From the UHGV virus genome UHGV-0023958: a stretch of 64,000 nucleotides of DNA; one strand, 5' to 3'. The translations under genes and the position numbers were made by a program. Of this stretch, positions 3,041 through 64,000 are shown piece after piece; the stretch's first letter is position 1, and each line of letters begins with the position of its first letter. Origin of the DNA: a virus. The notes under the pieces are model-generated. The model had not been told where the DNA came from, searched no databases, and saw only the letters and a list, made by a program, of their open reading frames with translations.

Positions 3041-3069
3041 GGAAAGGATAAAAGAGGAAGAAATTTAAA

Positions 3070-4904: not shown

Positions 4905-6235
4905 CGCAAGAAAATCCGTGACTTTAGTCGTGGGATGAATTGCGCGTAACAAGTTATGGAAGTAACTCGCGATAGAGAGTATGTTTACTCGATTCAATAT
5001 CACACAAAGAGGAGGTGAAGAATGTGGGAAAAGCTTATAAATATCGTATATATCCGAATGAAAAGCAGAAAGAGATAATAGCAAAGACATTTGGTTGTTG
5101 CCGTTTTGTATATAATAAGTATCTTGCGCAGAGAATTGAATTATATCAAACAAATAAATAGAGTTTGTCATACGTTAAGTGTGCAAAAGAAATATCTAAA
5201 TTAAAAGACGAACTTGAATGGCTTAAGGAAGTTGATTCCACGGCTCTTCAATCTTCCCTCAAAGATTTAGATAATACTTATCAGAAATTCTTTAAAGAAC
5301 ATACAGGATTTCCGAACTTCAAAAGTAAGAAAACGCACAGATATTCTTACAAATCTAGATATGTGAACGATAACATAAAATACCTCGGTAAATATATCAA
5401 ACTTCCAAAACTCGGATTGGTAAAAACGAAAAACAAGTTAATACCACAAGGAAGAATAGTAAATGTAACGATTTCTCAAGAACCAAGTGGTAAATATTAT
5501 GTTTCATTGTGTTGTGTAGATGTTGAAATAAAAGCATTACCAACAACTGGTAACACAATAGGCATAGATTTAGGAATTAAAGAATTTTGCATAACAAGTG
5601 ACGGAAAACTTGTGAACAATCCGAAATATCTTAAAAACTCGTTAAATAAACTTACAAAGTTGCAAAGAGAATTATCTCGAAAACCAAAAGATAGTTCTAA
5701 TCGTAACAAAGCAAGAATAAAAGTAGCAAGATTATACGAGAAAATTTCAAACCAGCGTAAAGACTTTTTACAAAAACTCTCAACCAATATCATTCGAGAA
5801 AACGATGTAATTTGCATTGAAGATTTGCAGGTGAAGAATATGGTTAAAAATCATAAGCTTGCACAGGCAATTAACGATGTTTCTTGGTCGGAATTTGTTC
5901 GAGAGTTAGAATATAAAGCACATTGGCATGGTAAGTTAGTTATTAAGGTTGATAGATTTTTTCCTAGTTCTCAAACTTGTAGTATTTGTGGATATAAGAA
6001 CGAGGAAACAAAAGATCTAAAAGTAAGAGAATGGGATTGTCCAGTTTGTCATACTCATCACGACAGAGATGTGAACGCTGCGATAAACATTCTTAATGAA
6101 GGACTAAAGCAATTAGCTTAAATATAAGAACCGCAGGAACTGTGGGGATAGCTTGGTAAATATTCTGACAGTAGTTGGAAGTTCCCAAGAATCTCACGGC
6201 TTTTAGCCGTGAGAGGTCCAAGGGATTAAAATAAT
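4905..6235 (+). mobile_element. IS200/IS605-family TnpB-only insertion element (no tnpA) with subterminal right-end hairpin
   Basis: TnpB ORF plus perfect 8-bp hairpin CTCACGGC-TTTTA-GCCGTGAG at 6193-6213 downstream of the stop, typical right-end/omegaRNA region; left boundary approximate. Confidence 0.55.
5024..6121 (+). CDS. tnpB: TnpB (IS605 OrfB, RuvC-like plus zinc finger) carrying one in-frame TAG at 5159-5161
   Basis: N-terminus [31 protein letters not shown] from GTG 5024, in frame through TAG into the 5165 ORF; RuvC motifs [27 protein letters not shown]; C-terminal CSICG..CPVCH zinc finger. Confidence 0.75.
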
Positions 6236-7051
6236 ATGACAGAACAAGAAATTTTTAATAGAGTAAAAGAGCACCACGAAGAAGCTAAATCATTAGGATA
6301 TAATGTCGTTGCAACTATTCTTCAAGGTTCACAGAATTACGGTCTTGAAATTGATTGCGAAGAATATCATTCTGATGTAGATACAAAATGTATCATAATT
6401 CCTAGTTTCGATGATTTTTGTTCTAATAAAGGTAGAATTTCTACTACGTATGTTCGGGCAAACAATGAACATATTGATTTAAAGGATGTTGGAACGTTAT
6501 TTGAATTGTTTAGGAAAGCAAATGTAAATATTCTTGAAATATTATTTTCAAAATATTATATTGTTGAATCAGATTACAAAGACTGGTTTGAAAAACTTCG
6601 TAGTTACGGAGAGCGTATTTGTAGTGCGAATAAGTGTCAAACATTCAGAACTATGTCTGGTTTGTCAATGGAAAAATACAAAGCACTTAAACATCCTTAT
6701 CCCTCAATTATTGATAAGATTGAAAAATATGGATATGACGGAAAACAACTTCATCATATTTTGCGTATAGCTAATTTCATCGGAAGATATTATCGTGGAG
6801 AAAGATTTAAAGATTGTCTGAAAGTCCATAAAAATTCTCGTGAGAATATGGATAAAGCAAAACTGAACTGGTTTTCTCTTGGTACGGCGGAATCTCTTGC
6901 AAAGATGTGGGACGATTTCACGAAAGAAATCAAAGATAAGTATTGCGAAGAACATAAAAACGATCCTATCGACGAAAAGATGTACGAAATTTTAAACAAA
7001 ATGAAAGTAGAAGCATACAAAGTGGCATTTAGAAAAGAATTGTCTCTGTAA
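6236..7051 (+). CDS. putative Pol-beta-superfamily nucleotidyltransferase
   Basis: GSQNYGLEIDCEEYHSDVDT resembles the GS..(D/E)xD nucleotidyltransferase signature; function not assignable. Confidence 0.35.
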   Translation: MTEQEIFNRVKEHHEEAKSLGYNVVATILQGSQNYGLEIDCEEYHSDVDTKCIIIPSFDDFCSNKGRISTTYVRANNEHIDLKDVGTLFELFRKANVNILEILFSKYYIVESDYKDWFEKLRSYGERICSANKCQTFRTMSGLSMEKYKALKHPYPSIIDKIEKYGYDGKQLHHILRIANFIGRYYRGERFKDCLKVHKNSRENMDKAKLNWFSLGTAESLAKMWDDFTKEIKDKYCEEHKNDPIDEKMYEILNKMKVEAYKVAFRKELSL

Positions 7052-11938: not shown

Positions 11939-12360
11939 TGCACAAAGTTTTTGAAAAAGATTATTTTTTGTATAAATTGATTAAACAATATCAAGAACAT
12001 GGCAATATCATTATTGCTTATGATTTTGACGATACAGTTCACGATTACCGCACTCATGAACCGATAAACGAGATAATTGATTTATTACAACAACTCAATA
12101 AAAATGCAAATGTAAAATTGATTTGTTATACATCTAGAATAGATAATGAAATAGAATATGTAAAAAACTTTTTATCCAATAACCAAATACCATATACAAC
12201 TATAAATGAACCAGTTTTTGTAGAGGGAATGACTTCTGGGAAAATATATTATAATATTTTAATTGATGACAAATCTGGAATTATAGAAACATATAGAATT
12301 TTAAATGATTTTTTGAATTATATAAAAGAAAATAAGGAGATTATTTATGAACAAAAATAA
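11938..12360 (+). CDS. HAD-superfamily phosphatase
   Basis: HAD motif I DFDDTV, motif II CYTSR, motif III IDDKSG. Confidence 0.5.
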   Translation: MHKVFEKDYFLYKLIKQYQEHGNIIIAYDFDDTVHDYRTHEPINEIIDLLQQLNKNANVKLICYTSRIDNEIEYVKNFLSNNQIPYTTINEPVFVEGMTSGKIYYNILIDDKSGIIETYRILNDFLNYIKENKEIIYEQK

Positions 12361-13582
12361 GTATGCTGAGCTTTGTCCGATTGATTATAATGACGGTTGG
12401 GCGGTCCATTATTTGACAGAAACAGATGTATACAAATTTAATATGGGTATGGTGATGTTTTTAAAATATCCTAATCTTTGGGGAAAATACATCTTTAAAT
12501 GCAGAACTAAGGATGTAAAATTTAATAAAGGAATTCTTTCTGAAATCAATCGTCAAATCGACCATTTGTGCTCTTTAAGATTCACAGAACCAGAATTACA
12601 GTATCTTAAAACAATTCGGTATCTTGGTGGCGCATATCCAGAATATATTGAATATTTGAGATTATGGCATCCAATTCGTGATTATGTAAAGACTTGGATC
12701 GAAGATGATATGCTTCATATTGAAGTAGACGGACCTATGTTCCAATGTATGCAATTTGAAATTTATCTTTTGGAAATTGTGGCACAATCATATAATTATA
12801 TCAATGGCAATATCGAAGAAATTGAAGCATCTGGTATCAAAAAACTCGATGAAAAATTAGAAAAGTTTAAGAATGGCACTTATACTTTTAACTTCGCTGA
12901 ATTTGGCGCGAGAAGAAGAGCTACTGCTCGTATGCAGGATATTGCCGTAGATAAATGTCTGCAAACAGGTCATTGTGTCGGAACTTCCAATGTATATCTT
13001 GCAATGGTTTATGGGGTGACTCCGATCGGAACTTATGCTCACGAGTATGTTCAAATGTTCCAAGGTATTGATGGAATTCAGCTTGCCTATACAAATAAAT
13101 ACGCTCTTAAAGAATGGTTTGAAGTATTTAATGGTGATAATGGTACGGCCTTAACTGATACTTTGTCTACTGATTTATTCCTTATGGATTTTGATAAGCT
13201 TCAAGCAACTATGTACACTGGTGTAAGACATGACTCTGGAGATCCGTATGTTTGGGGAGATAAAATTATTGAGCATTATAAAAAACTTGGAATTGATCCC
13301 AAAACAAAAACATTGTTGTTTAGTGATTCGTTAGATTTTAATAAGGCACAAGAAATCTACAATTATTTTAAAGACAAGTCCAAAGTTTCGTTTGGCATCG
13401 GAACATATATTTCAAATGATACGTGTATTGCTCCTTTGAATATTGTTGTCAAACTTCAATATGTAAATAATAAACCAGTTGCAAAACTTTCCGATGTGTC
13501 TGGTAAAACTATGTGTCAAGATAAAAATTATATTGAATATTTAAAAAATGCTGTTGAATACAGACTTGAAAGTGGGAGATAA
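12347..13582 (+). CDS. pncB: nicotinate phosphoribosyltransferase (PncB-like; NadV-like not excluded)
   Basis: N-terminal TETDVYKFNM (PRTase TDxYK motif), GTYAHEYVQMFQ (GTxAH), 411 aa. Confidence 0.65.
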   Translation: MNKNKYAELCPIDYNDGWAVHYLTETDVYKFNMGMVMFLKYPNLWGKYIFKCRTKDVKFNKGILSEINRQIDHLCSLRFTEPELQYLKTIRYLGGAYPEYIEYLRLWHPIRDYVKTWIEDDMLHIEVDGPMFQCMQFEIYLLEIVAQSYNYINGNIEEIEASGIKKLDEKLEKFKNGTYTFNFAEFGARRRATARMQDIAVDKCLQTGHCVGTSNVYLAMVYGVTPIGTYAHEYVQMFQGIDGIQLAYTNKYALKEWFEVFNGDNGTALTDTLSTDLFLMDFDKLQATMYTGVRHDSGDPYVWGDKIIEHYKKLGIDPKTKTLLFSDSLDFNKAQEIYNYFKDKSKVSFGIGTYISNDTCIAPLNIVVKLQYVNNKPVAKLSDVSGKTMCQDKNYIEYLKNAVEYRLESGR

Positions 13583-13588
13583 AGTATT

Positions 13589-14146
13589 ATGAATGTTAAT
13601 ATTATAATTGATATGCAAAACGATTTTATCGAAGGTTCTCTTAAAAATGATTCTGCAAAGGCAATTGTTCCAAAAATTTGCGAATTTATCAAAAAGAGAA
13701 AAGATGAGAATTTCGTAAGTACATTAGATACTCATCTTGACGAAAAATATCTTCAAACTCAAGAAGGTAAGATGCTTCCGATTAAGCATTGTATATATAA
13801 AACTTGGGGACATGAACTGAATTCATCAATACAAAATGTTTTATATGAGAATAATGTAAGTATAAAATATGCTTATAAGGAAACATTTGGAATGAATCCA
13901 GAAGGTTGGGAAAATATATTTAACAACACAGATTATAAAGAGAAAATTCATTTCTTTTTAACTGGCGTATGCACAGATATTTGCGTCGTATCAAATGCTA
14001 TGATTTTGAAATCTTTGTTCCCAGAAAATGAAATTACTGTATATTCTGATTTATGCGCTGGAACGACGCCAGAAAATCATCAAAAAGCACTTTGTGTTAT
14101 GCAAAGTTGCCAAATTAAGGTAGAGAAATTCTTTGATAATGTATAA
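13589..14146 (+). CDS. pncA: nicotinamidase, isochorismatase family (PncA)
   Basis: IDMQNDF and GVCTDICV cysteine-hydrolase motifs. Confidence 0.65.
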   Translation: MNVNIIIDMQNDFIEGSLKNDSAKAIVPKICEFIKKRKDENFVSTLDTHLDEKYLQTQEGKMLPIKHCIYKTWGHELNSSIQNVLYENNVSIKYAYKETFGMNPEGWENIFNNTDYKEKIHFFLTGVCTDICVVSNAMILKSLFPENEITVYSDLCAGTTPENHQKALCVMQSCQIKVEKFFDNV

Positions 14147-14669
14147 ATATAATTCTGGTTTGATAGTTGGAAGATTCCAATTCTTTCATAATGGACATAA
14201 ATCAATTCTTGATAAAGCATTAAAAGAATGTGAAATTGTAATTGTTTGTATTGGTAGTGTCGAAGAAAAACGAAATTATCGCAATCCATTTAATTATGAA
14301 GAACGTAAAAAATTTATTTTATCGGCTTATTCAAGAAAGGAAAGAAAAAGAATTAAATTTATTCCACTTGTATCTATAGGCGTTGGAGATAATCCTGTTT
14401 GGGGTAATTATATTTTAAATTCTTGCAAGTTTTATCATAATATTTCGCCCGAAGTATATTATACTGGAATGGAATCTGATAGAAATAATTGGTTTCCAAA
14501 TCAAAATATTAAAAACGTTTATATTGATAGAAATATAATTAATATTAGCGCAACAGAACTCAGAGAGGCTTTATTTATTAAAAAGGATTTATCTATAATT
14601 TTTCAGTATATGAATTATAAAGTTGCAAAAGGAATAATTAAAAAATGCAAAAATTATTTAAACATTTAA
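14133..14669 (+). CDS. nicotinamide/nicotinate mononucleotide adenylyltransferase (NadM-like)
   Basis: GRFQFFHNGH matches the GRFQPFHxGH motif of NadM/NadR NMNATs. Confidence 0.65.
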   Translation: MIMYKYNSGLIVGRFQFFHNGHKSILDKALKECEIVIVCIGSVEEKRNYRNPFNYEERKKFILSAYSRKERKRIKFIPLVSIGVGDNPVWGNYILNSCKFYHNISPEVYYTGMESDRNNWFPNQNIKNVYIDRNIINISATELREALFIKKDLSIIFQYMNYKVAKGIIKKCKNYLNI

Positions 14670-15202
14670 AATTAGTGCATCAGCATAGAAAATATGTTAG
14701 AAAAATATGTTTTAAAATGGGTATTTTCTGGAGAGGGATTGTACACGATTTAAGCAAATATTCGATTCAAGAATTAAAAATTGCTAAATACTACAATGGA
14801 AAGAAATCACCTCATCAACAATGTAGAGATGAAATCGGATATTCTCCCAGTTGGATTCATCATAAGCATAAAAACAAACATCATTATCAATATTGGCAAG
14901 ATGATGATGAAGATAATAAAATCATACCTATTAAAATGCCATATAAATATTGTATAGAAATGTTCTGTGATATGGTCGGCGCAGGAATGGCTTATTCGAA
15001 AGATAAGTGGAATACTGGCTCTCCTATTGAATATTGGGAAGAACATTGCATAGGAAAGGCTATTATTCATGAAGAAACAATCTCTCTGATGAATACACTG
15101 TTCTCTATTTTAAAACAATATAACACTATTGATGAATTTTATGTTTGGTATAAAAAACATAAAAAAGAAATTAAAAAAAGATATGAAACAGTAATTTTAT
15201 GA
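14645..15202 (+). CDS. putative HD-domain phosphohydrolase, last gene of the NAD operon
   Basis: H..H...HD arrangement (HQHRKY..GIVHDLSKY); weak. Confidence 0.3.
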   Translation: MQKLFKHLKLVHQHRKYVRKICFKMGIFWRGIVHDLSKYSIQELKIAKYYNGKKSPHQQCRDEIGYSPSWIHHKHKNKHHYQYWQDDDEDNKIIPIKMPYKYCIEMFCDMVGAGMAYSKDKWNTGSPIEYWEEHCIGKAIIHEETISLMNTLFSILKQYNTIDEFYVWYKKHKKEIKKRYETVIL

Positions 15203-15211
15203 AAATTTTCA

Positions 15212-15250
15212 AAATATCCTTGCGAAATTAGTTGACAAGGATATTTTTTT
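15212..15250 (+). terminator. terminator hairpin AAATATCCTTG..CAAGGATATTT plus T-run; loop and stem carry the next -35
   Basis: 11-bp inverted repeat followed by TTTTTTT. Confidence 0.55.
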
Positions 15251-15260
15251 GTGATATAAT
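15232..15260 (+). promoter_or_regulatory. sigma70-type promoter
   Basis: TTGACA(15232-15237) -17- TATAAT(15255-15260). Confidence 0.6.
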
Positions 15261-15291
15261 AAGTATACAAAATCAAAAAGAGGTAATAGTA

Positions 15292-15690
15292 ATGAGATTG
15301 TGGCACAAAGATTTAATCGAATATCTTCCAAAGTTACAGTTAGTAGCACAATGGAGGGAATTAAATTCTATTTATGTTCATCAGAATAATCATATTTTGA
15401 TTAATTATATCCATACTTATCCAAAAGAGTATTTATTATCTTATTCAAATTGTATTATAAATGAGATGAAAAAACGTGGAATTAAAATTAACAGTTATTT
15501 AAATTACGCAAAATATTTCAAAGACATTAAAAAAATTGATAATTTGAAATTCAAAGAGCATGATGATGATTATTTGAAAATTTGTTATTATAATTTATAC
15601 GAAAAATACCTACGTGGACAAAAAGATTTTAGTGAAAATATTTTTTCAAGATTAAATATTTATATAAACAATAGGATGGTATTAAAATGA
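15292..15690 (+). CDS. denV: pyrimidine-dimer DNA glycosylase (T4 endonuclease V / DenV-like)
   Basis: MRLWHKDLIEYLPKLQLVAQWRELNSIY parallels T4 endoV [27 protein letters not shown] including the catalytic-Glu context; KRGIKIN vs KRGFNIK. Confidence 0.5.
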   Translation: MRLWHKDLIEYLPKLQLVAQWRELNSIYVHQNNHILINYIHTYPKEYLLSYSNCIINEMKKRGIKINSYLNYAKYFKDIKKIDNLKFKEHDDDYLKICYYNLYEKYLRGQKDFSENIFSRLNIYINNRMVLK

Positions 15691-17836: not shown

Positions 17837-18829
17837 TTGGATATGATGAGTCTTATTAATCAAGATATTTTGAAAGAAGTAGAAAGTAAGAAAGGTTTAA
17901 ATATCACACTGCAAAAAACATGGGAGAATTTAATCCGCCAAGTAAATAACGAATTTTGTGCTGGATATAAAGATAGATATGGTGTTCCAAAAGTTGATTT
18001 CTTTATGGAAGATAGTAATTGTTCAAAAGATTATTTCTATATTAGATTTAGAATTGAGCAAAACCCAGAATGGATGTTCGGTGTAGAGTGCGTGAAAAAA
18101 TCTGTGGAGAAGACTTATATTGATTTCAACTTCCGCTTTTGGGGACAATATTGGGATGTGGTAGACAAGTTTAGATATTCACGTGCAAAATATCGAGATG
18201 AAAGTACATTAAGAATTTTTACAGAAGAAGATACTGAATTTTCTTATGAAGAAGCAATCGATATTGGCGGTGTTTATAGTATTTGCAAGATTATAGATTT
18301 CATTATAAAAGAGCCAGAAATGGCATTTTGCAGAGATTATTATGGTTGGGATTACAACCTTGAATTGCATACTAAAAGAAGTGCTATCAATCAATATAAT
18401 AAATGGCGCAAAGAATTTATGGCGAAAAATTCAGCAAAAGAGATTTGTAGAGTAAAACTTCTTCATTTTATGAAAGACGAAGTTATGCCGTTTTACCCCG
18501 AAGATGCCTTCATTGTAGACAAAGGTGATAATGTAAGACCAAGATACGATATTTGTGTTTATGATGAAAAATGTATGGGACTTAATTGGGGAATCGACTT
18601 ATTAAAGAAAGAAGAAAAAGAAATTCGTCGAAAATACAAGGTATTTTTAAAAGAGTGTAGACAAGTTTTCAAAGAACATAAAGTAAATTTTGTTGATTAT
18701 GTGGATTTACCAAATGATGAATCAAGTTTTGGATGTTGCTATATTATTCCAAGAAAGCTTAAAGAGGCGGTAAAATATAAAAAAATCAACGATAACGGCA
18801 TTGAGTTGTATGTGGTGGACTATGAATAA
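17837..18829 (+). CDS. hypothetical protein
   Basis: 330-codon ORF. Confidence 0.45.
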   Translation: MDMMSLINQDILKEVESKKGLNITLQKTWENLIRQVNNEFCAGYKDRYGVPKVDFFMEDSNCSKDYFYIRFRIEQNPEWMFGVECVKKSVEKTYIDFNFRFWGQYWDVVDKFRYSRAKYRDESTLRIFTEEDTEFSYEEAIDIGGVYSICKIIDFIIKEPEMAFCRDYYGWDYNLELHTKRSAINQYNKWRKEFMAKNSAKEICRVKLLHFMKDEVMPFYPEDAFIVDKGDNVRPRYDICVYDEKCMGLNWGIDLLKKEEKEIRRKYKVFLKECRQVFKEHKVNFVDYVDLPNDESSFGCCYIIPRKLKEAVKYKKINDNGIELYVVDYE

Positions 18830-33540: not shown

Positions 33541-33685
33541 AACACCAAATTTTACCCTAAATCCAAAATTTCCAACTTTATCCCAACCCCGTCGGTTTAA
33601 GTTCAAACTAAAACCAAAATAATGTATAAAAAAATATCCGCCGCCCGAAAGGGCGAAGGATATTTGTCATATTTGTCTTTGAATA

Positions 33686-33762
33686 AAAAGTTGTCAAACG
33701 TTCCGGTATATAAGTGTTCTATTACTATATTATTATATACCCAGTAGTTTGACAACTTTTTT
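33686..33762. terminator. bidirectional terminator, 14-bp inverted repeat with T-runs on both sides
   Basis: AAAAGTTGTCAAAC..GTTTGACAACTTTTTT. Confidence 0.5.
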
Positions 33763-33772
33763 GTCTTAAATC

Positions 33773-35233
33773 TTAAAAATCTAAATCCTCAATCTCGTCT
33801 TTGTATAAAATTCCATCTTCAGTCTTCTCTAATAAATGTTTCAATTTCTTACCATTTGACATACCGCGTTCGAAAGCGTAACTACAAACCAGTTCGTTTA
33901 AACTCATGGTTGTATGTTGTAAGAATTCTTGAATTTTTACAAAAGACTCATCGGCATAAACCGTATCTGCTTTTGTAACATAAGCGTCATTTTTATAATC
34001 TTCTATCTCTTGAGCTTTTTCAAGCTTATTAAGATATTCTTTTGTTTGATCGTAAAAATAATCATTTATATTACGATTTTGAAGCATAAGACATTTTCGT
34101 TCTTGAGATTTACAATATTGGAAAAACTGTTCCTCTTCAACAGCTGATTTAACATCTTCTTTAATCGCTTTATTTAAAGAATCATTATGTTTTGATAAAG
34201 TTCTTTGTTTATGAGCTTCTTTGAATTTACCTTGAATAAATTTTCTTAAATCAGAATCGCTAATCATTCGTTTGGCTATGTCTTCACATTGTTGATCTTG
34301 TGAGACAATTACAATATAACTTGATAATCCGATTAATCCGAGATGTTTAAGAATTAATCTATCCAAATCATAATAGAATTGATCTCTGTTTTCTTGATTG
34401 AGTTCTGTTACATACTTAACGTTATATTTTTCCAGAAGTTTCTTTTGAATAAGAAGATATTTTCTCAGCTCTTCTTTTTCTTCAAGCATCACAAAGTTAT
34501 AATCTTTCTTAATCTTATTATCATAAACAGATCTGATTTTTCCGCTCTCCAAAGCTTCTAAAACCTTTTGTTGAGATTCTGGCGTAAGCTTATAAGCACC
34601 ATATCTTTCAGTTTTGAAAATAGCATGTTTATTTGTAAGCTTTGTGCAAGCAGATTGGAAAGCATGATCAAAAGACGAAGTTGTGTTTCGATAAAAGAAA
34701 TCAAGATTAATAACCGCGTTTTCACTATGTTCATCTTGGTATTCTTCGTAATTATTAAATCTTACGTCAATTGTAGAAAGTAATTGATTTCTGCTATCTT
34801 CGTCATAAGGTTTCCAATGGCTGTTCGCCATTCCGAGTAACTCATACCAATAACGTTTTGTTAAGGCAACTGGATTACATTCGGCTTGTGAAAGTATAAC
34901 GCTTAAAGTTAAAGCAACATAATCGGATAAAGGAATTTTTTTGTTGATTTGTTTTGTAATCGGAATTTCATTTGTTTTGATTTTGGTGAACTCTACAGAA
35001 TTACCACTTTTGATACAGTCGGTGTTTTTTAATATTAAGTCTTTGGTTTGCATCATCGCACCTCCTGTACAATATTTCAGTCCTAAATCTTCAAAAACTT
35101 CTTTCCAATTCTTGTAACGATAATTGATTTTGAGATTTGATAAATCAATCTTTCTCAATACTTGAGGATCGCTGATTTTTTGTTGAATAATGTAGTTGTC
35201 AATACGTTTTTGAATATCAGTCTACTACGTCAT
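33773..35233 (-). CDS. hypothetical protein whose codons 3 and 4 are both TAG
   Basis: minus-strand promoter TTGACA -17- TATAAT (35284-35312), SD AAAGGAG, ATG at 35233-35231, then ACG TAG TAG ACT in frame with the 461-codon ORF listed in the track. Confidence 0.55.
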
Positions 35234-35283
35234 GATAAACACTCCTTTTGGGCATAGTACACCCATTTAGATTTTATATAAAT

Positions 35284-35312
35284 ATTATAACACAAAATCA
35301 GAAAAATGTCAA
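35284..35312 (-). promoter_or_regulatory. sigma70-type promoter (minus strand)
   Basis: on the minus strand, TTGACA -17- TATAAT. Confidence 0.6.
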
Positions 35313-35501
35313 CTGATTTTGCGTGAAAAACAAAAGATTTTTAAATATTTCTTCCTTTAAGGGAAAATCGCTACAAGCCTTTAAAATAAAGGACTTTTTT
35401 GAAAGTTTAGGAGATTTGTATTTTTAAACACTAACTTATCCGCCGCCCGAACACCGATAAAAATAAATTCAAATAAATTCATAAAAACCCCTTAAAAATA
35501 C

Positions 35502-35530
35502 TTGACAAATTCAAATAAATATAGTATAAT
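35502..35530 (+). promoter_or_regulatory. sigma70-type promoter
   Basis: TTGACA(35502-35507) -17- TATAAT(35525-35530). Confidence 0.6.
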
Positions 35531-35577
35531 TAATATATAAATATTGGGCGGTCCGCCGCCCGAAAGGAGAAAAAAAA

Positions 35578-36611
35578 TGAAACTTGAAGACATGAGAGTC
35601 GGTGCATTTGTCAAGTGCACAAAGCCAGAATGGGATTGCTACGGCGATATGTTCGAAATCACAAAGAAATATCCAGACGGTAAATGGGAAAATGGAAAAT
35701 GGGAACTTGAAACAATAAAATGTGCCAGAGGAGCTTTAAAAGAAACTCTTAAAGGAGTGCAATATAAAACCGTTGTAACACAAAAGACTTTACAACATAA
35801 TTTTAAACTCGATAAAGAACATACGGCAAAAAGAGAACTTAAAATCGTTTGCCGCGCAGATGGTACAACATTTATTAGTGATGGCACGGTGTGTGAAAAT
35901 GTAGGTCTTTATCATGAAGACAAATACGATGAATTTGTCGGTGCTGTAGAAGCATTGGCAAAGTTTTATGGCAGGAAATCTCCGTTTGATGAAATCGAAG
36001 AATTGAAAGAAGCTGTACGGACGGCGGAAGAGCCTGTTGAAGCAACCGAAGTAAGCGACGAATGGTCAACCGTAGAGAAAGAAGAGCCGAAATCTCACTC
36101 ACCAGTAGACGATATGGATCTCACGCCGCCTTTGGAAGAAGGATGTCTGATTGAAGTTTTGAAACCACAAGTAACAGAGACCGGTGAAGACGTAACTGGA
36201 GCATGGCAATATGTCTATTTTCTTGAAGACGGGGGTAAATTCAAAGACGAAGAGGGATTTCCCCGTAAAGACTTAGAGGGCATTACACATGCTGTTGTAA
36301 ATGATGTTACTAAAATTGATAACCGTAAATATTATTGGTGTGGATTGCCTTTCGCGGAGAACGAAATTAAAGTTGTTAAAGAAAGCTATCGTGATATTTG
36401 GCCAGAAGATACGACTTATAAGTTTGGCAGTCGCGTTTTCTTAAACGATAAATCATATACTTCAAATCGTAAATGTCGTGGAACAGTATTTGATTGCAGA
36501 AAAAGCAATGGTCGCACTTATTACCATGTTCATTGGGATAAGAAAAACGTTCATCGCAGATGTGATGAAGAGTGGGTTGAAGAAATTTCTCTTCATTCAT
36601 CGCTTTATTAA
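35578..36611 (+). CDS. hypothetical protein
   Basis: SD AAAGGAGAA then ATG 35578; followed by terminator. Confidence 0.5.
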
Positions 36612-36620
36612 AATAATTAT

Positions 36621-36650
36621 AAGGGCGGCGGATAGCCGCCCTTTTTCTTT
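36621..36650 (+). terminator. rho-independent terminator
   Basis: AAGGGCGGC-ggata-GCCGCCCTT then TTTTTCTTT. Confidence 0.65.
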
Positions 36651-36867
36651 GTTTATTATCCGCCGCCCAAGGACGGCTTTAAATAAGCCTACATTGCGTA
36701 TCTTATCTTACCTGATAGATTATACCAGCAAATCGAAACGTACGAAATTAGACGATGTTTTGTAAGCCAAGGGTGATTATAATATCTTATGCGGGCGGCG
36801 GCTTAAAAAAATAATCGGTCAGCTCGAAAATTCTTTAAAAAATATTTTAAAAACATATCAAAATCAG

Positions 36868-36896
36868 TTGACTTTTTCCAAGAAATATGTTATACT
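36868..36896 (+). promoter_or_regulatory. sigma70-type promoter firing into an ORF-poor structured region
   Basis: TTGACT(36868-36873) -17- TATACT(36891-36896). Confidence 0.55.
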
Positions 36897-36902
36897 ATAC
36901 GT

Positions 36903-37421
36903 GTCGAAAGGTTGAGAGAGAAATCTCAAGATATTCTCATTGAATCCCCCATAAAACAACTACAAAATTAAATCAACCTTTCGACCATCATAGCTTATAG
37001 AAGAGAGGGATGAATCGATCCACACGTTCATAACAATCCTCCTAAAATTTTACATCCATTAAGTTTGATTTCTCCCTCTCTTAAATTTATCTACAGTGCC
37101 GTGCAGGAGCGTTTGCGATTCGTTCTTTGTTTGGTCTATTCATATTTGTTACTCCTTGGAAGACAGTCGGTCGAAAGATCGGCTGTTTTCTTGTTATATA
37201 TAAACAAACCGACGGTCAACCGTTTTTATCAATGGTTCAAGGGCGGCCTTCAACCCATCTTAGCGCGGCGCGGCGCGTAAATCCTCGCATAATAATCCCT
37301 CGCGTATCTTACTATTTGTATAGCGCAACTTTGGGGTTCGATGCGCTTGGGTGTTATTATATCCTTTAAAGAGTTTGTGAAGTTCTAAGGTTTGGCGGAT
37401 AAGATTATTCTCCTATCCGCC
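36903..37421 (+). ncRNA. candidate structured non-coding transcript
   Basis: starts at a 13-bp long-range inverted repeat GTCGAAAGGTTGA(36903-36915)/TCAACCTTTCGAC(36973-36985); second helix AAGAGAGGGA(37001-37010)/TCCCTCTCTT(37073-37082); ends near hairpin GGCGGATAAG..TATCCGCC (37393-37421); no convincing plus-strand ORF. Confidence 0.3.
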
Positions 37422-37433
37422 GCCCGTCAACTG

Positions 37434-53518: not shown

Positions 53519-56329
53519 TTATTCATAAACAATTTCTCCGTCTTCGTTTATTAAGAAACTTTGCGCCTCTTTTGAAATAAGCATAAGTTTATACTTTCTT
53601 CCAAGGAATTCTTCGCCGTCTTCACATTCAATTGGCACGTATGTTTGTTTTTGTTCGATACAGTCGAGTATGTCATCACCAAGTATCTGCCAGGCAAAAT
53701 CCCAATTGAATTTCGTATATGATTGCGATAAAGCTTTAATATATGTCAACGTTTCCATCGTGGTAAGTTCGAGCGTCATCAAATCATTTTGAATTTCTTC
53801 TTTGATGATGTCGAGATAACCAAATCTTATGTCTTTAAAATCTTCATCGTCAACATCGAAATAAATGCTGTTAATAAGAGTGATTGCTTTTTTATTGCAG
53901 TATTTACGATACATATCGCGGAACTTTTGAAGAATATCTGGAATTATGATATAAGAATTTAAATCGTAATATGGAAGCATGCTTGTGCAGTTTTTATTAT
54001 ATTTAATATCAAAATCGATAGATTCGATATCACGACATAATAAATTCATCGTACAGTTTGTATTGATAAGTGGAAGAAACTTATGATATTTTTTTACAAA
54101 ATCATTCTCTTCTTTTGTTTTATTCTCTTTTATAAGAAGTTTTTTAAGTTTCTTTCCGAACATACATTTTGATGTTTCGTTATACGTATTTTCGTATTTC
54201 TTATATTTTTCGTTTAATTCTGGATATAAGTATCTAAAGAAATAAGGTTTTTTGGAAATAACGAGTGAATTATGATAATATTTTTCTTTTCTTTGCTCTT
54301 CTGTATCATCTTTGTCGATTTTCCAGATTTTAAGCCATTCGTCCTTCGGAGGACCTTTGGCTTCAACGCCTTTAATTCTGTCAATTTCCTGACCGTTGAT
54401 TTCTCGAAGAAGTTTTATGCGAAGCAGAAGCTCTTCCCGTTGCTTTTTTTGCTCTGGACGCTGGAACATCGGTAACATTGCTTCAATAATCGTTGAATAA
54501 TTACTGTAAGTTCCAACTTTTGTACCGAACCCACGAATATCTGTTTCTATGAAGTTTCTATGACAAATTTTGTGAGAAGGTGCCGGTTGTTTTTTATATG
54601 TGATAGGATTTGTATAATCTTTCATCGAACCTTTTAAAAATATCGGATTATTTGTGCTCATACAAATATCACCGTCAAAATCACTGTCTGAGTGTCGGAG
54701 TGTACTTAAATCATATATTGAATAAACAATCCCGCTTTCAATCCATTTGTACCATTTTGTTGTTTCTTCATTATCAAACAATTTGCAATGATTTATCTCG
54801 TGTTTATCAAGAAGTGGAGAGCGACAGAGAACTATTTCATCGCCAATATTTGCGCGATTTTTCCAGAAATTCGAATAAAAATGCTCACCGGGTAACACTC
54901 CGACGGGTGGCAATCCTAACGCGCTTTGACACTGTGCTATCGGATCGGAAATCATAAACGAATAATTTCCTTTAACCCATATTTTTCCAATTTTCGATTT
55001 ATTGATTGATTCAACTATGTTTTTGTAAATTTTTCTTTGGACATAAGAATCTTTTAAAAATTCTGGATTTTTTACAACCGCTTTCATAGCAAGGTTTTGC
55101 GCTCTTGTGTATACGTCAGAATATTCAATTTCCATATCTTGATTGAACCCACCGAGCGAATATAACATAGCATATAAATCATCTCCGCTACAAACTTTCT
55201 GAAGCCAATCGATGGTAGGTTGAATTAATTCTTTAACATCTTGTTCTTTTATATTTAAAACTTGAATATATTGATAATTTGCAAGAACCCATTCGTCATC
55301 ATATTTTTTGTTGTATCTAGATACACCCCATCCGATGTTATATTTAGTGGCATATGAATCAAAATCTTCCCAACTTGAATAAGCTTTGTATTCTTTAAAT
55401 TGACTTTCTGAAATCAAACAGTCTATATCTTCTATTTTATGTGGTATTCCCCATCTATCATAAATAACAGATATATTATACTCAGCTGCATACGCTTTAA
55501 AATCGAACGGAACGAGATTTCCTTTGATAAACACGGAGCGAACAACGTACGAACTGGCAACATAATCAAGCCCCATTTCCTCAGACCATTTCATTGCCAT
55601 TTCTGGAGAAACAAGCCCCTGTCCGTCACAGCTATTCATTGTTACGTCTTGGACTCTTTCCTCTACTGCCTTTTTCCCATCTTCTGTGTTTATAATCCAA
55701 TCGATTTTTTGATCTTTCAGTGTTGTTTCAAAATCTTTGATTATACAAACACGTGGTTTCGAAACCCACATTATCGAAGATGTTGAAAGAGAGAAATACG
55801 CAGACAGTTTGGCAATATTTGTTTCTTCGAGACGATTATTCAAATCGCACATCAAACGCGTAAATAATTCTTCGTAAATGCGCTCCGAACAGAATTGTAC
55901 CGTATTGTGTCTGATTTGTCCTGCACTGGCACTAAAACGAACATATCTTACACCGTTTAAATAAAACCCTGCTTTTGCAAGCCTTCTATATTCCGATTTT
56001 TTATTTACGGTAACAAGAACAAAATCTTTAACAAATAACTTATTTAAAATTGCATACCAGAATATTCTCGCATCTTTTGCTCTACCTTCTTTCTTTGCAC
56101 GTCTCATCGATCCACGAAGAAATTCTATTTCTTTAAATATCTCATGATGATTTCGATTATCGCCATTGATAAAACGAGCTTGTTGAAAAGCGATGTTATC
56201 TCCGAGTGAAACAAGATTTCCGTCCAAAGCAGCCTGTCTAGCATCGTATGATGGTATATCGAGGTTGTTTTCACAAATAAACTTTGAAGACAACTTTATA
56301 ATTTGATATAAAACTTGTTCGCGAGCCAT
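53519..56329 (-). CDS. putative YonO-like / two-barrel single-subunit RNA polymerase
   Basis: 936-aa protein with HSDSDFDGD (plus coords 54668-54682), matching the DxDGD metal-binding motif (NADFDGD in beta-prime; DxDGD in YonO/QDE-1-type RNAPs); translationally coupled TAATG with the upstream kinase. Confidence 0.5.
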   Translation of the reverse strand: MAREQVLYQIIKLSSKFICENNLDIPSYDARQAALDGNLVSLGDNIAFQQARFINGDNRNHHEIFKEIEFLRGSMRRAKKEGRAKDARIFWYAILNKLFVKDFVLVTVNKKSEYRRLAKAGFYLNGVRYVRFSASAGQIRHNTVQFCSERIYEELFTRLMCDLNNRLEETNIAKLSAYFSLSTSSIMWVSKPRVCIIKDFETTLKDQKIDWIINTEDGKKAVEERVQDVTMNSCDGQGLVSPEMAMKWSEEMGLDYVASSYVVRSVFIKGNLVPFDFKAYAAEYNISVIYDRWGIPHKIEDIDCLISESQFKEYKAYSSWEDFDSYATKYNIGWGVSRYNKKYDDEWVLANYQYIQVLNIKEQDVKELIQPTIDWLQKVCSGDDLYAMLYSLGGFNQDMEIEYSDVYTRAQNLAMKAVVKNPEFLKDSYVQRKIYKNIVESINKSKIGKIWVKGNYSFMISDPIAQCQSALGLPPVGVLPGEHFYSNFWKNRANIGDEIVLCRSPLLDKHEINHCKLFDNEETTKWYKWIESGIVYSIYDLSTLRHSDSDFDGDICMSTNNPIFLKGSMKDYTNPITYKKQPAPSHKICHRNFIETDIRGFGTKVGTYSNYSTIIEAMLPMFQRPEQKKQREELLLRIKLLREINGQEIDRIKGVEAKGPPKDEWLKIWKIDKDDTEEQRKEKYYHNSLVISKKPYFFRYLYPELNEKYKKYENTYNETSKCMFGKKLKKLLIKENKTKEENDFVKKYHKFLPLINTNCTMNLLCRDIESIDFDIKYNKNCTSMLPYYDLNSYIIIPDILQKFRDMYRKYCNKKAITLINSIYFDVDDEDFKDIRFGYLDIIKEEIQNDLMTLELTTMETLTYIKALSQSYTKFNWDFAWQILGDDILDCIEQKQTYVPIECEDGEEFLGRKYKLMLISKEAQSFLINEDGEIVYE

Positions 56330-56868
56330 TACACGCCCCTTTCTTTATATCTTTGTTCAATCAATTCATATAATTTAAAGCTTAAATCTTCGAGATCTTC
56401 GAGTGTACCGTCATTTTCGATATAAAAATCAAAATCATAATCATTCATCGCATTTTCAGAAGAATGTTTTCTTTGTTCTTCTGTCAAATCGTTTTCGATT
56501 GGTCTATCAACGAACAATGTAATAATTTCTTCCTTATCCGCAACGTTTGTCTCATTTGGATATCTACAGTCTGGAATAATTACTACTTCTTCTGGACAAC
56601 CAAGAACAAATTCTTTTGCGATTTTTACCCAACAATCAGATTTGTTGCTTCTATAAATATCTCCCGTGTGTTGAAGAATTGTTCTTCCAACAGGGCCTTT
56701 GTCACCTCGTGTCCAATGATAAGCGTTTTCGCAAATCATTTTCAGCGGATCGGCGAAATGATAAATCAAAACGCGTTTTCCTTCTTCTTCATATCTTCTT
56801 CTAAGAGCTTCTGCGGTACTATCCTTACCATGCCGCCCTTTACCAGAGATTAAAATAATCTTTTTCAC
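56329..56868 (-). CDS. deoxynucleoside monophosphate kinase (T4 gp1-like)
   Basis: MKKIILISGKGRHGKDSTAEAL parallels T4 gp1 MKLIFLSGVKRSGKDTTADFI (P-loop). Confidence 0.5.
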   Translation of the reverse strand: MKKIILISGKGRHGKDSTAEALRRRYEEEGKRVLIYHFADPLKMICENAYHWTRGDKGPVGRTILQHTGDIYRSNKSDCWVKIAKEFVLGCPEEVVIIPDCRYPNETNVADKEEIITLFVDRPIENDLTEEQRKHSSENAMNDYDFDFYIENDGTLEDLEDLSFKLYELIEQRYKERGV

Positions 56869-58307: not shown

Positions 58308-58868
58308 ATGAAAGATAAAAAAATGGAAAAAGAAATTTTAGATGTATATGATATATTCGAAAAACATAAAGATGAAAATTTTGAAGAAATCTTTACAAAT
58401 TATAAAGAAGAATTTGAAAAATCTTTACCTTCGTTGCCAGATGGAGATTATAAAGTAAAGATTTTAAATAAACTTTACGATAATTATGTAAATGTTGAAA
58501 ATCAAGAACATAAATTGATAAAGTTTTATAAAGAGGAAGATGATTTCATAAAAACAATTGAAAATAAAGATATGAAAGCACTCTTTTATTCATTCTATGC
58601 GCTCCATAAATTAAATATGCACGAGAGCGGTTGGGATAGTTATGATATAGACAAATTGCGCGAATTATCGGGCATTGAGAAGCTCAAATGCGAAGATTTG
58701 CCGCCAGTTTTGAAATATGGAATTCAACTTCGTGTGAGCGGAAGCAAAAAACCGACGCAAACCTTTCATATTGATAACGGAGTTGAAGGAAAGGAAATTT
58801 CGTGGAGTTGCTTCGACGATACTTTTAAAGAACGAATGAGGAGGCTGGTTTATGGAGATTGTAAATAA
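58308..58868 (+). CDS. hypothetical protein
   Basis: ORF track. Confidence 0.45.
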   Translation: MKDKKMEKEILDVYDIFEKHKDENFEEIFTNYKEEFEKSLPSLPDGDYKVKILNKLYDNYVNVENQEHKLIKFYKEEDDFIKTIENKDMKALFYSFYALHKLNMHESGWDSYDIDKLRELSGIEKLKCEDLPPVLKYGIQLRVSGSKKPTQTFHIDNGVEGKEISWSCFDDTFKERMRRLVYGDCK

Positions 58869-59625
58869 ATTAGAAGCAATTAAATATATGCTGAATAATA
58901 AATCTTACATTCCCGAATTGAGTACAAATAAATAGGATGCCTGGCTCTTATATTATTTAAGAAAGAAGAAGGGAAAAGATAAAGACGAAGCATATAAGAT
59001 TTGGCTTCCGATTTATGAAACAGTACACGAAAAATCTTCCAAGGGCGAATACCTTGGTGTCTTTTGGAATAAGTGGAAAACTTCCGCTTCAACCGTCCGT
59101 TTAAACAAACAAAATATTGCAACGATTTATCAAGAAGAGATTGATAGAATAAATAAATGCGACGTTAAAGCAACTTGGCAGAAGCAGTTATTGTTATTGA
59201 TTTTGGTTTATGCGAAAATGACAAACAATTTCAGATTAAGCGAAATTAATCTCGGCCTTTTCGCGAAATATATCGGAAAGAAAACGAAAGATATTACCGA
59301 AAATCTTTCTTACTCAATGACGCAAGAAGCGATTAAAAACGAGATATTCGAAATGGTTGAAATAAAGGAGTGGGATGATATTGAAGGTTGCTGGGAAACG
59401 AGTAGATATTTCAATATTCACGAATTTAAGAATGGCGAAGTCATTTGTAATATATGGAACGGCTATCAAGTAAAAGAATTAGATCATTTGTTTCCTATTA
59501 TTAAAACTTGCGAGAATTGCGGAAGCGAGTTTCGACCGAGTTCTCGTGGAAAAACTTGTTTATGTGAAAGATGTTATAAGAGAAAAAGATATGATTTCCA
59601 AAACTCTTTTCATATTGTTAAGTAA
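58852..59625 (+). CDS. hypothetical protein with C-terminal zinc ribbon; one in-frame TAG at 58933-58935
   Basis: SD GAGGAGG then ATG 58852; reading frame open from 58852 to 59625 except the single TAG (codon 28); C-terminal CENCG..CLCERC. Confidence 0.5.
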
Positions 59626-59760: not shown

Positions 59761-59836
59761 GCTTTCATGGCTCAATTGGTAGAGCATTTGATTTGTAATC
59801 AAAGGATTCTCGGTTCAAGTCCGAGTGGAAGCTCCA
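59761..59836 (+). tRNA. tRNA-Thr (anticodon UGU), CCA encoded
   Basis: cloverleaf: acceptor GCTTTCA/TGGAAGC, D-stem GCTC/GAGC, anticodon stem TTTGA/TCAAA with loop TTTGTAA, T-arm CTCGG-TTCAAGT-CCGAG, discriminator T then CCA. Confidence 0.7.
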
Positions 59837-61172: not shown

Positions 61173-62453
61173 ATGATTTTTAAAAAAACACCAGTAGATA
61201 AAAAGTATGATGCTGCTGGCGATGATGAAGATGGTTTATCTTCTGAAAAATACCCTCCTCTTGGGAATTTTAACACCGTAAGACAACAAGGCGGTTGTTT
61301 TGGGTGTGGGGCAATACGAAAAATCTCATCTTATCCCATCGTTCATCCAAAAAGCGGCTGGGGTTTGATGGATAAAAACGGCAAAAAACACTTTGTGTTT
61401 TGTGAAAATTGTTTTGCAAAGTTAATAGATCAATATACCGAAGAGGCGCATGGAAATAAATATAAAGCTTTATATCGTATGTGTATGTATACAGGTTATT
61501 ATTACGATGATAAGCTTGCACACAGGGTTATAGAAGAAGAACATAAATATGACGATAACACTCCAGTTCCAAAATCCTATCACTGGGGCTTGCTTTATAA
61601 TAAAGCAGTTCGCGAAGATTTGATACTTTCTGATAAGACATTTTACGATTCCGATAATATTATGTTTGAGGAAGTTGTAAAATATCATAATCAACACAGC
61701 GTTGAAGATTTAATGTCTGACGAAGATAAAAACAATAGAATTACAATTTTGTCAGTCTTTCACTGTGATCCGTTTGAAGACGAAGAATTATTGGATAGAG
61801 TTAAATTACAAAACGACCTTGTAACAATGATTGACGATTCAATGGCGGACGATATGGTTCGTCAAAAGGCGGCAATCGAAATCGTTCGTTCGTTTCATCG
61901 TATCGATAAAATTAGTAAAGCTTTACAAGAATTACAAACAGATAAAGATACAATGCTCGAACATACAAAAGAGATTAAAGAGTTGTCTGAAACTAAACAA
62001 AAAGAAACAAGCTTGGTAACTCAATTCTCAAAAGACCACGGGTTTGCCGAAAAATACGCCACTGCAAAATCAAGAGGTTCTGGTTCACTTGGTTATATTA
62101 TAAAAGAAATGAACGAGAAAGGATATGATAGGGGTGCTGTCAATAAATTTGATATAGACACGGCAGCGGCAATGAAACAGGTTGCGGATATAAGTTCTTC
62201 ATCAATGGCGAAACAAGTTGCGCTTAGTGATTCTGATAAAGCTGCTATGATAAAAGATCAATCGATAATGATTAATCGAATGAGAGAAACGATGGAAAAA
62301 CAAGCTGAAGAATTAAGACTACTTCGTGAAAAACATTTGAAATCTGAATTATTAGACGAGTATAAAAAAGATTTGAAAGATAAAGGTTTAAATGAAGAAC
62401 AAATAGATAGAGCTGTTAAAGAAGAATTAGATAGAAGGATACCAGTTGTATAA
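61173..62453 (+). CDS. hypothetical zinc-ribbon/coiled-coil protein; possible terminase small subunit by position
   Basis: immediately upstream of and coupled (TAATG) to terL; N-terminal CFGCG..CENCF, long charged C-terminal helix. Confidence 0.3.
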   Translation: MIFKKTPVDKKYDAAGDDEDGLSSEKYPPLGNFNTVRQQGGCFGCGAIRKISSYPIVHPKSGWGLMDKNGKKHFVFCENCFAKLIDQYTEEAHGNKYKALYRMCMYTGYYYDDKLAHRVIEEEHKYDDNTPVPKSYHWGLLYNKAVREDLILSDKTFYDSDNIMFEEVVKYHNQHSVEDLMSDEDKNNRITILSVFHCDPFEDEELLDRVKLQNDLVTMIDDSMADDMVRQKAAIEIVRSFHRIDKISKALQELQTDKDTMLEHTKEIKELSETKQKETSLVTQFSKDHGFAEKYATAKSRGSGSLGYIIKEMNEKGYDRGAVNKFDIDTAAAMKQVADISSSSMAKQVALSDSDKAAMIKDQSIMINRMRETMEKQAEELRLLREKHLKSELLDEYKKDLKDKGLNEEQIDRAVKEELDRRIPVV

Positions 62454-64000
62454 TGATAAGTGTATATAAGAATTCTACCGAAATAGAAGTAACTACTCGT
62501 CGTGCTGAAATTTTTGAAAAATATAATAAAGTAATTCAATACGGAAGAAGAAACCCAGTGTGGTTTATAGAAGAGATTTTTAAAGTTCCACTTTTGGATT
62601 ATCAAAAATATATTATAATGAACTCCTGGACTAAATAGCGTGCGATATGGGTATGTTCTCGTAACGCGGGTAAGTCCATGATGGGTGCATTATATACTAT
62701 GACAAAAGCATTATTGTTTCCGTCTTTTGAATGTTGGTTTATGTCTTTGAGTGCAAATCAGGCACAGACAACATTTAAAAAATTGGAAGATATTGCTAAA
62801 AAGAATATACCCTCACTTATTGGTTCAAGTGATGTTTTTATGAATGAAACCGTAAAATTACAAGCAAATTCTGACGGTTTCACACATCAAAAATCAAACC
62901 ATGAAGTAAAACTTTATAACGGTTCTCATATTACAACGTTGGCTGGTAAACCAGAAACAACCGTTGGTATGCGAAGCCATTTGAGCGTATATGATGAAGC
63001 TGGTAAAATTTCTGCTGAATATTATGGTTTAACAGAACCATTTGCAACGCAAGATACCAACTTCAAAACTGGTGAAAAAATTGATTTGAACGTTATTCCA
63101 AAAATGATTCCAACACAACTTCTTTATATGTCTTCTGCGGAAGATACCTCTTCATATTTATGGGATATTTATAAAGAAGGCGCGAAGAGAATGATGATGG
63201 GTGATAACACTTGGTTTGTCGCAGATATAAATTGTGAAATTCCGTTACACCCTACAAAAGGCGGTAAGCCGTATGCTCCACTGTTAAATCAACAGGTTGT
63301 TGATGACGCTATGCGTGTAAACGAATATAAAGCATTGAGAGAATATTATAATATATTTGATACTACTGGTGGTAACGATGCTGTTATCAATAGAACTATT
63401 ATTATGAGAAACGAAGAAGAGTATCTTCCTGTTTTTGCTAACGATAACACGGTTACGCCAGGAGACAGAATATATGCTTTGTGTTTCGATCCTGCTTTGA
63501 TGTCGGATAACTCAATTATCTTGATTGGAGAACTGACGAAAAAAGACGGAGTTGGTTGGACTGGAAGAATAGTAAATTGCATCAACCTTATTGAATCTTT
63601 AAATAACGGAGAGAAGAAAATTTTGACAGCAGTTGAACAAGTCGAGCGTTTAAAGAAATTGATTATTGATTATAATGGAAACGCACCAGAGTATAAGAAT
63701 TTAACAATATTTATAGATCCTGGTTCTGGTGGTGGCGGACATATATATTCAGATATTCTTATGCAGAATTTTGTTGATGAATATGGAATTAGACACTTTG
63801 GTTTAATCGACCTGGAAGATGAGAAATCTGCTTTGGAACAAAACAAATTCCCACTCGCTGTAAGAGATGTTTTACATTTGTATACTGCAACAAAATATAA
63901 AAATGAGTTTTACAGTGCGGTAACAACAATGTGCGAACAGGATTTGGTTAAATTTCCTTACACAGATTCGTTCGGTTCTAAAAACTTTACTATAAACGGA
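62453..64000 (+). CDS. terL: terminase large subunit (partial, runs off window) with one in-frame TAG at 62636-62638
   Basis: 61-codon N-terminal ORF ends at TAG; same frame continues RAIWVCSRNAGKSMMGALY (Walker A) .. HLSVYDEAGKI (Walker B) to the window end. Confidence 0.7.

Follow-up and report, generated by a model that had tools for sequence, protein, structure and literature searches.

Can a phage gene be translated when a stop codon stands at both its third and its fourth position, and could such an opening decide when its product is made? This question is raised by a gene on the minus strand of UHGV virus genome UHGV-0023958, analysed here in a stretch of 64,000 nucleotides (nt; the whole stretch is called the window). 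The original prediction, made from the letters of the window, described a promoter (TTGACA-17-TATAAT), a Shine-Dalgarno (SD) sequence (AAAGGAG) and an ATG at 35233, followed by ACG, two TAG codons and an open frame of about 480 codons. All these elements were confirmed on the minus strand at the coordinates listed in Table 1, and 482 sense codons run from the TAG pair to a TAA.

Reading frame of the gene and TAG as a glutamine codon

The window was aligned with nine related contigs, each from other samples (10 sequences). The promoter, the SD and the ATG-ACN-TAG-TAG opening were present in all ten; the check for N-terminal TAGs in related contigs, which the original prediction had proposed, thus gave 9/9 relatives. 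At codon 8, six sequences have CAA and four have TAG, so that TAG and a Gln codon replace each other directly among close relatives. The internal ATG ATG preceded by AGGAGG (35056/35053) is missing in four relatives (L004, L005, L007 and L008), in which a sequence encoding QSGPPSEKNK, with no ATG, takes its place; the TTG at 35158, the start used in the mechanical list of open reading frames (ORFs), has no SD. The frame from the TAGs to this TTG is open in 10/10 sequences, and the variable sites are distributed over codon positions 1/2/3 as 7/4/19 in codons 1-59 and as 1/1/5 in codons 2-26, upstream of the TTG. Because the opening is invariant, the downstream ATG is missing in four relatives and the variation is mostly at third positions, translation is shown, as judged from the alignment, to start at ATG 35233 and to run through TAG TAG. 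The pattern that the original prediction had set against itself (homologues initiating at the TTG or ATG, with the upstream region not conserved) is not what the relatives present: their opening is invariant and the AGGAGG-ATGATG is absent in four.

Reading TAG as sense barely alters the ORF map of the window, in which three genes besides the target need it (Table 1). The in-frame TAG of the TerL gene separates LLDYQKYIIMNSWTK from RAIWVCSRNAGKS and directly precedes the Walker A motif, and the same codon is CAA or CAG in two relatives; the genome therefore needs TAG read-through. In the TnpB-like gene, Pfam domains lie on both sides of the TAG: HTH_OrfB_IS605 (residues 1-45) on its 5' side, OrfB_IS605 and TNB on its 3' side. 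This codon is CAA, AAA or GAA in other copies at the loci compared. The stops of the long ORFs of the window (51 ORFs) are TAA in 36, TGA in 13 and TAG in one.

Rough gene calls over about 150 kb of the lineage gave 211 genes, 24 of them with TAG (82 TAGs), and at most four of the 211 possibly end in TAG. Among homologues, 61 of the 82 sites vary, the commonest replacements being CAG (22) and CAA (21), then Ser, Lys and Glu codons. The late block downstream of TerL includes predicted tail genes of 1457, 494, 1242 and 1343 residues, with 14, 9, 12 and 12 in-frame TAGs respectively, and a 3034-codon ORF with 36. Since TAG aligns mostly with CAA/CAG, the late genes are heavily recoded and TAG is rarely a terminator, the phage lineage is assigned from its sequences to genetic code 15 (TAG = Gln). 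Reassignment of TGA or TAA was rejected, TGA read-through adding only overlapping spurious ORFs.

A matching transfer RNA (tRNA) with anticodon CUA was found by ARAGORN in three metagenome contigs (L078, L079 and L080). In L078 it lies at 6678-6752 (75 nt, encoded CCA, 54.4 bits on the Rfam tRNA model), and its position is 6 kb past the end of the late-gene block. Its sequence, UGGGGAAUAGC...CUCUAAA...CCCCCGCCA, carries U1, G2-C71, G3-C70, G10, U35 and G73, a set of identity elements that we associate with bacterial tRNA-Gln and with supE-type suppressors, and the tRNA(CUA) of the relatives would accordingly be classed as Gln-like. The flanking gene of the three contigs is 93-99% identical at the protein level to an IMG/VR contig, and where the DNA of L078 overlaps contig 168342, the two are 94% identical; this contig and the window have 100% identical TerL. 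The tRNA(CUA) is preceded, 70 nt upstream, by a perfect TTGACA-17-TATAAT, and its neighbours are nucleotide-metabolism and replication genes without TAG (dUTPase, NrdD and NrdG, recognised by eye, and a DNA methylase with PF01555). An attempt to place the tRNA(CUA) and the target on a single contig by way of the adjacent methylase gave no link, as this family is too widespread and its nearest entry is on a 4.7-kb contig.

Several further observations concern the tRNAs of the lineage. A 118-codon gene starts 34 nt past the tRNA(CUA) of L078 (6786-7142, plus strand; GGAGG-n8-ATG TCG TAG ATA, with TAG at codons 3 and 13) and is probably co-transcribed with the tRNA required for its own translation. 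When related IMG/VR contigs were walked along, a tRNA cluster was found about 10 kb upstream of the window start; it contained no anticodon CUA, and its variable content includes Asn, Gln-UUG, Ala, Trp, Tyr, Val and Leu. A Gln-like tRNA of this cluster (L057 7733-7806; L061 8389-8463; L066 8485-8555) has in one contig a normal 7-nt anticodon loop, CUUUGUG, with anticodon UUG, and in other contigs a 6-nt loop, CUUGUG or CUUAUG, to which ARAGORN could assign no anticodon; the copies with the shorter loop may be either decaying genes or decoders of an unusual kind. No ribozymes were found beside the tRNAs. The tRNA-Thr(UGU) of the window was seen in 7/12 TerL-linked relatives and not in L013-L017; its site lies outside L017, which holds only 250 bases upstream of TerL.

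The proposed gate and the position of its TAG codons

Termination at UAG by release factor 1 (RF1) and amber suppression are established processes. We consider it likely that the target is a protein-coding gene of a TAG = Gln phage, the translation of which is gated by the two ambers until the suppressor tRNA works. The claim of the original prediction that the product could be made only with active TAG suppression follows from a lineage that reassigns TAG and from the Gln-like tRNA(CUA) in its relatives, provided that the host reads TAG as stop. As logic the gate is supported; its role in timing we infer from sequence.

The gene would be a stand-alone cassette transcribed from its consensus promoter by host RNA polymerase, and its messenger RNA (mRNA) would probably be available early, because the gene is served by a consensus host-type promoter and a terminator of its own and lies in a TAG-poor block that also encodes a phage RNA polymerase. 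While host RF1 wins at UAG, Met-Thr would be released and no 486-residue protein made; a failed round would cost only two codons, as the ambers stand at codons 3-4. Once the phage-encoded suppressor, a Gln-type tRNA with anticodon CUA of the kind seen in the close relatives outside the window, had accumulated, TAG TAG would be decoded as Gln-Gln and the full-length protein produced. Two ambers in series would make the output roughly proportional to the square of the suppression efficiency (the cube in relatives with TAG at codon 8), any leak being multiplied down. The arrangement would amount to an AND condition with low leak, requiring an active promoter and an abundant suppressor. Because the suppressor has the same promoter class as its target, we would expect a delay or threshold instead of a strictly late switch, and any delay would be set by accumulation of the tRNA, not by late transcription.

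Several points weigh against the gate. The suppressor tRNA on which the original prediction relied is not in the window, where ARAGORN and Rfam found only the tRNA-Thr(UGU), and is present only in close relatives. Suppressor and target are thus linked through relatives whose flanking DNA is 94% identical at the nucleotide level. Suppressor and target share the consensus promoter type, so that a long delay is not guaranteed. Finally, the gate holds only if the host reads TAG as stop, and the search for a prophage or host with the protein family and TerL found none among 185,579 representative bacterial and archaeal genomes.

The gate leaves aside the question of whether the position of the TAG codons is itself meaningful. 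The target gene is not rich in TAG (2/30 Gln-type codons, three in four relatives; the others in the window are 27 CAA and one CAG), and its TAGs are exactly the first two of these 30 codons, or the first three in the four relatives, the remaining 27-28 being CAA or CAG. Random placement would give this with P = 0.0023 for the first two Gln sites and P = 0.00025 for the first three. TAG TAG is invariant in the 10 sequences while nearby codons vary synonymously and codon 8 toggles, and the gene stands behind a consensus promoter inside a block otherwise poor in TAG. RNA structure does not account for this invariance, the only candidate being a weak AU/GU stem at the start codon, without covariation. 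Three more genes of the lineage keep an early TAG among relatives: at codon 3 (the gene directly 3' of the suppressor tRNA), at codon 5 (M-A-L-S-TAG) and at codon 7 (M-I-Y-N-S-S-TAG).

All this sits poorly with neutral placement, the main rival, according to which the gene depends on the suppressor like all TAG genes and the position of its TAGs is a by-product without regulatory meaning. That explanation nevertheless draws on several findings, which also count against a selected position: TAG makes up about 7% of the Gln-type codons in the predicted genes and late genes carry TAGs along their full length; the base context after TAG does not differ from that after CAA/CAG; and homologues of the target at 26% identity have no TAG at their start. 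The enrichment of N-terminal TAGs over the genome is only marginal (four genes have a TAG no later than codon 7, where 1.1 would be expected; P ~0.03, a weak value with a threshold set after looking), and the within-gene statistic is post-selection, as the gene was chosen for its odd look. On balance, we regard neutral placement as unlikely, and selected early placement as plausible but unproven. Only tentatively do we entertain the fuller possibility that the tandem early ambers are a selected design by which a cassette with constitutive transcription becomes an AND gate with a threshold, opening only above a critical level of tRNA-Gln(CUA). As part of the same tentative reading, the device would recur in the lineage, two late genes having it at codon 5 and codon 7 respectively and the gene that shares a transcript with the suppressor having it at codon 3.

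Other readings of the gene opening

The protein could instead begin at TTG 35158 or at ATG 35056/35053, in which case ATG-ACG-TAG would be a two-codon upstream ORF or leader. Database annotation would favour such a start. Among the 14 close homologues recovered by protein search (88-97% identity, no Pfam domain), six start at the TTG (MRKIDLSN) and one at the internal ATG; eight database entries give a protein shortened by standard-code (code 11) gene callers, six of them with 461 residues and two, from later starts, with 456 and 426. In the window, moreover, the internal ATG ATG is preceded by a strong AGGAGG. The remaining seven homologues, however, start as MTQQTDIQKRIDNY (one as MMTQQ...), and the DNA behind the MTQQ entries fails to give the protein under the standard code, indicating that their callers had read TAG as Q. 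The replacement of AGGAGG-ATGATG in four relatives, the lack of an SD at the TTG and the open, mostly third-position-variable stretch between the TAGs and the TTG also speak against a later start. So do the homologues at 25-30% identity, which align over nearly the whole protein (from an exhaustive profile search and another by word index) and have 38-105 residues before the invariant motif DL..LK.NY.YKNWKEV, a motif that begins at residue 30 of the full-length target protein. A leader peptide would be a separate short ORF ahead of a main ORF with its own conserved start, and no conserved SD-bearing start was found downstream. We therefore hold a wrongly placed start to be very improbable.

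Minigenes of the bar type in phage lambda are the model for another reading, in which a strongly expressed ATG-ACG-TAG would cause peptidyl-tRNA drop-off and impair translation in the host early in infection. The consensus promoter and strong SD ahead of a start-codon-stop arrangement would suit it, and the phage has a tRNA-Thr(UGU). Such a minigene would carry a fixed sense codon aimed at one tRNA, but codon 2 is ACG or ACT, read by different tRNAs, so there is no single tRNA target; the tRNA-Thr is missing from some relatives; and the downstream frame is continuous with the ATG and conserved as protein. The chance of this reading appears slight indeed. That the TAGs are nonsense mutations in a dead gene or sequencing artefacts, as the break at codon 3 under the standard code might suggest, is already contradicted by the comparative data (the same two TAGs in nine independent assemblies from different samples, an intact 486-codon frame at 88-97% protein identity, and one 90%-identity protein cluster with 403 member sequences) and can be practically dismissed.

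Cassette, protein and lineage, and their relation to known systems

The target gene is a self-contained cassette bracketed by two copies of the GC-rich element GGGCGGCGGA (Table 1). Exact TTGACA-N17-TATAAT sites number 12 in the window against 0.05 expected from shuffles, so the promoter of the target exceeds a chance match; all 12 are on the same strand as the surrounding gene block, and on reading the sequences most have TG two bases 5' of the -10. In the leader hairpin, one pair occurs as U-A, U-G or C-G. Six exact copies of GGGCGGCGGA lie at 33.6-37.4 kb and the window also has three near copies; up to one mismatch, 0.26 would be expected in the whole window. Several copies (33637-37425) sit inside terminator-like hairpins, and copies flank both the target gene and the adjoining 356-codon ORF (35541-36611, plus strand). 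Gene content around 33637-37425 varies between the relatives L001, L005, L007 and L009, and the region resembles an array of exchangeable cassettes, all built in the order hairpin-promoter-gene-hairpin.

Table 1 Features of the tandem-TAG gene and of the genes, promoters and tRNA of the window discussed in the text. Positions are those of the 64,000-nt window.
Feature	Position	Strand	Remarks
-35, TTGACA	35312-35307	minus	Read from the sequence
17-nt spacer	between 35307 and 35289	minus	TGT at its end (extended -10); TG two bases 5' of the -10
-10, TATAAT	35289-35284	minus	Followed by a 50-nt leader
Whole promoter, TTGACA-17-TATAAT	35284..35312	minus	Consensus sigma-70/sigma-A type; same hexamers in 9/9 relatives
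Leader hairpin, UGGGUGU-ACU-AUGCCCA	35249..35265	minus	RNAalifold consensus of 7 sequences; weak evidence
SD, AAAGGAG	35242..35248	minus	8-nt gap to the ATG; kept in all relatives
Start ATG	35231..35233	minus	Sole SD-bearing start conserved in 10/10 sequences
Codon 2, ACG	35230-35228	minus	ACG or ACT among the 10 sequences, synonymous
Tandem amber TAG TAG, codons 3-4, read as Gln-Gln	35227-35225 and 35224-35222	minus	Invariant in 10/10
Codon 8	35210..35212	minus	CAA in the window; TAG in L001, L002, L003 and L006
Coding sequence including stop	33773..35233	minus	486-residue protein; 482 sense codons after the TAGs, to TAA 33775-33773
Terminator-like GC-rich hairpin and T-run	33641..33656	minus	Holds GGGCGGCGGA; predicted fold -19.8 kcal/mol
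Second copy of GGGCGGCGGA	35439..35448	minus	Directly 5' of the promoter of the gene; brackets it together with the downstream copy
Exact promoters, plus strand	15232, 24213, 27977, 28527, 29023, 32635, 35502, 58252	plus	
Exact promoters, minus strand	35312, 42575, 53231, 57570	minus	
TerL gene	62453..64000	plus	Runs off the window; in-frame TAG 62636-62638, codon 62
TnpB-like (IS605 OrfB) gene	5024..6121	plus	In-frame TAG 5159-5161, codon 46
Gene with AGGAGG-7-ATG	58852..59625	plus	In-frame TAG 58933-58935, codon 28; TAG kept in 12 related loci
tRNA-Thr(UGU)	59761-59836	plus	Encoded CCA; ARAGORN, Rfam

The target protein has no Pfam family, only insignificant PHROG matches and no relative in a PDB sequence search; its family is small and restricted to phage contigs of similar size. 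An N-terminal domain (about residues 23-88) is conserved in the 25-30% identical homologues. AlphaFold gave a predicted local distance difference test (pLDDT) of 38 from the single sequence and of 54 with a 12-sequence alignment, only residues 23-88 being confident; these are predicted, with moderate confidence, to form two helices followed by a beta-hairpin, and were tentatively assigned to a winged-helix-like DNA-binding domain. Foldseek found nothing below E = 0.7 against PDB and only uncharacterised siphovirus proteins against viral models. The 26% homologues (L105 ~5695-5725; L107 ~5725-5755) lie about 270-290 nt 3' of a perfect TTGACA-17-TATAAT, and the intervening leader, with its CCTATAG...CTATAGG inverted repeats, may regulate this protein family post-transcriptionally in another way. 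On the tentative reading of the ambers as a selected design, a leader of about 300 nt in place of the TAGs in these distant homologues would suggest that the family always needs tight post-transcriptional control.

With TerL as probe, twelve IMG/VR contigs were recovered (TerL 95-100% identical), eleven of which are 94-148 kb long. The GenBank phage collection searched gave no megablast match and no match to the target protein, and for TerL only 25-26% matches (Bacillus phage Stills and 113-134 kb Clostridioides phages); the lineage is absent from this collection. The use of SD sequences, the sigma-A type promoters and these distant TerL matches suggest a Firmicutes host. The window also encodes a 941-residue protein (53519-56344, minus strand) with Pfam PF05183 (RdRP family, E = 2e-10; PHROG 8308), a family which we take to include YonO, the single-subunit RNA polymerase of SPbeta. 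Perfect sigma-A promoters are nearly absent from the late-gene block (one in ~53 kb beyond the part overlapping the window), and this scarcity would fit late transcription by a YonO-like enzyme. Two ORFs on the plus strand look like nicotinamide adenine dinucleotide (NAD) salvage genes: one resembling nicotinamide phosphoribosyltransferase (12326-13582, PHROG 448) and one with GRFQFFHNGH (14124-14669), a motif typical, by eye, of nicotinamide mononucleotide (NMN) adenylyltransferases.

Classical amber suppression, with supE-type tRNA-Gln(CUA) and conditional-lethal amber phage mutants, is the nearest laboratory parallel. There as here, a gene with UAG is silent without a CUA tRNA, and the tRNA of the relatives bears the hallmarks of tRNA-Gln; unlike the laboratory mutations, however, ambers and suppressor here are conserved and would both belong to the wild-type phage. 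Anderson, Voigt and Arkin reportedly built, in 2007, a synthetic AND gate from a polymerase gene with two ambers and a separately controlled suppressor tRNA. The phage arrangement has the same two inputs (a promoter for an mRNA with two ambers and a promoter for the suppressor tRNA) and one output, but is natural and not engineered.

Phages recoded to code 15 are known in the crAss-like, Lak, Garnet and Amethyst clades and in phAss-1 (bioRxiv 10.1101/2021.08.26.457843; PMC9523058; PMC10607447). The present lineage resembles them in its in-frame TAGs in structural genes, the alignment of TAG with Gln, a suppressor tRNA in close relatives, the rarity of TAG as stop, the low-GC genome and a replication/early region largely in standard code. 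Unlike them, it is absent from the GenBank set, its TerL is at most 26% identical to that of Bacillus/Clostridioides phages, and the gene proposed to be gated, which carries tandem TAGs at codons 3-4, forms a stand-alone cassette under a consensus host-type promoter in a TAG-poor region. In the model of Borges et al., recoded genes are untranslatable until the code change takes effect (bioRxiv 10.1101/2021.08.26.457843). The gate idea is this published recoding model, to which a pair of adjacent stops right at the beginning of a gene adds a new detail. Neither 'tandem' nor 'consecutive' occurs in that preprint, which ascribes N-terminal in-frame stops in integrases to start-site errors (bioRxiv 10.1101/2021.08.26.457843). 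Its TGA-recoded Agate phages have a recoded homing endonuclease in an early gene, read as held back until late (bioRxiv 10.1101/2021.08.26.457843). Like that endonuclease, the target is a single recoded gene amid otherwise standard-code early DNA; unlike it (TGA/Trp, intron-encoded, stops throughout), it uses TAG/Gln and has stops only at its very start.

In a few genes, the last TAG stands 6-14 codons before the next TAA/TGA (window 4515-4949, plus strand; in the composite sequences of 168342, upstream 2779-3813 and 17922-18173, and late block 14825-15595). If TAG were the normal stop of these genes early in infection, later suppression would add a short C-terminal extension. The lineage pairs a YonO-like RNA polymerase with consensus sigma-A promoters. 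For annotation, N-terminal in-frame stops of the kind dismissed elsewhere as start-site errors are, from the comparison made here, real in the target gene. With one gene, one promoter, two adjacent ambers and a matching tRNA(CUA) in the lineage, the locus would be a compact test case for stop-codon recoding as a means of timing.

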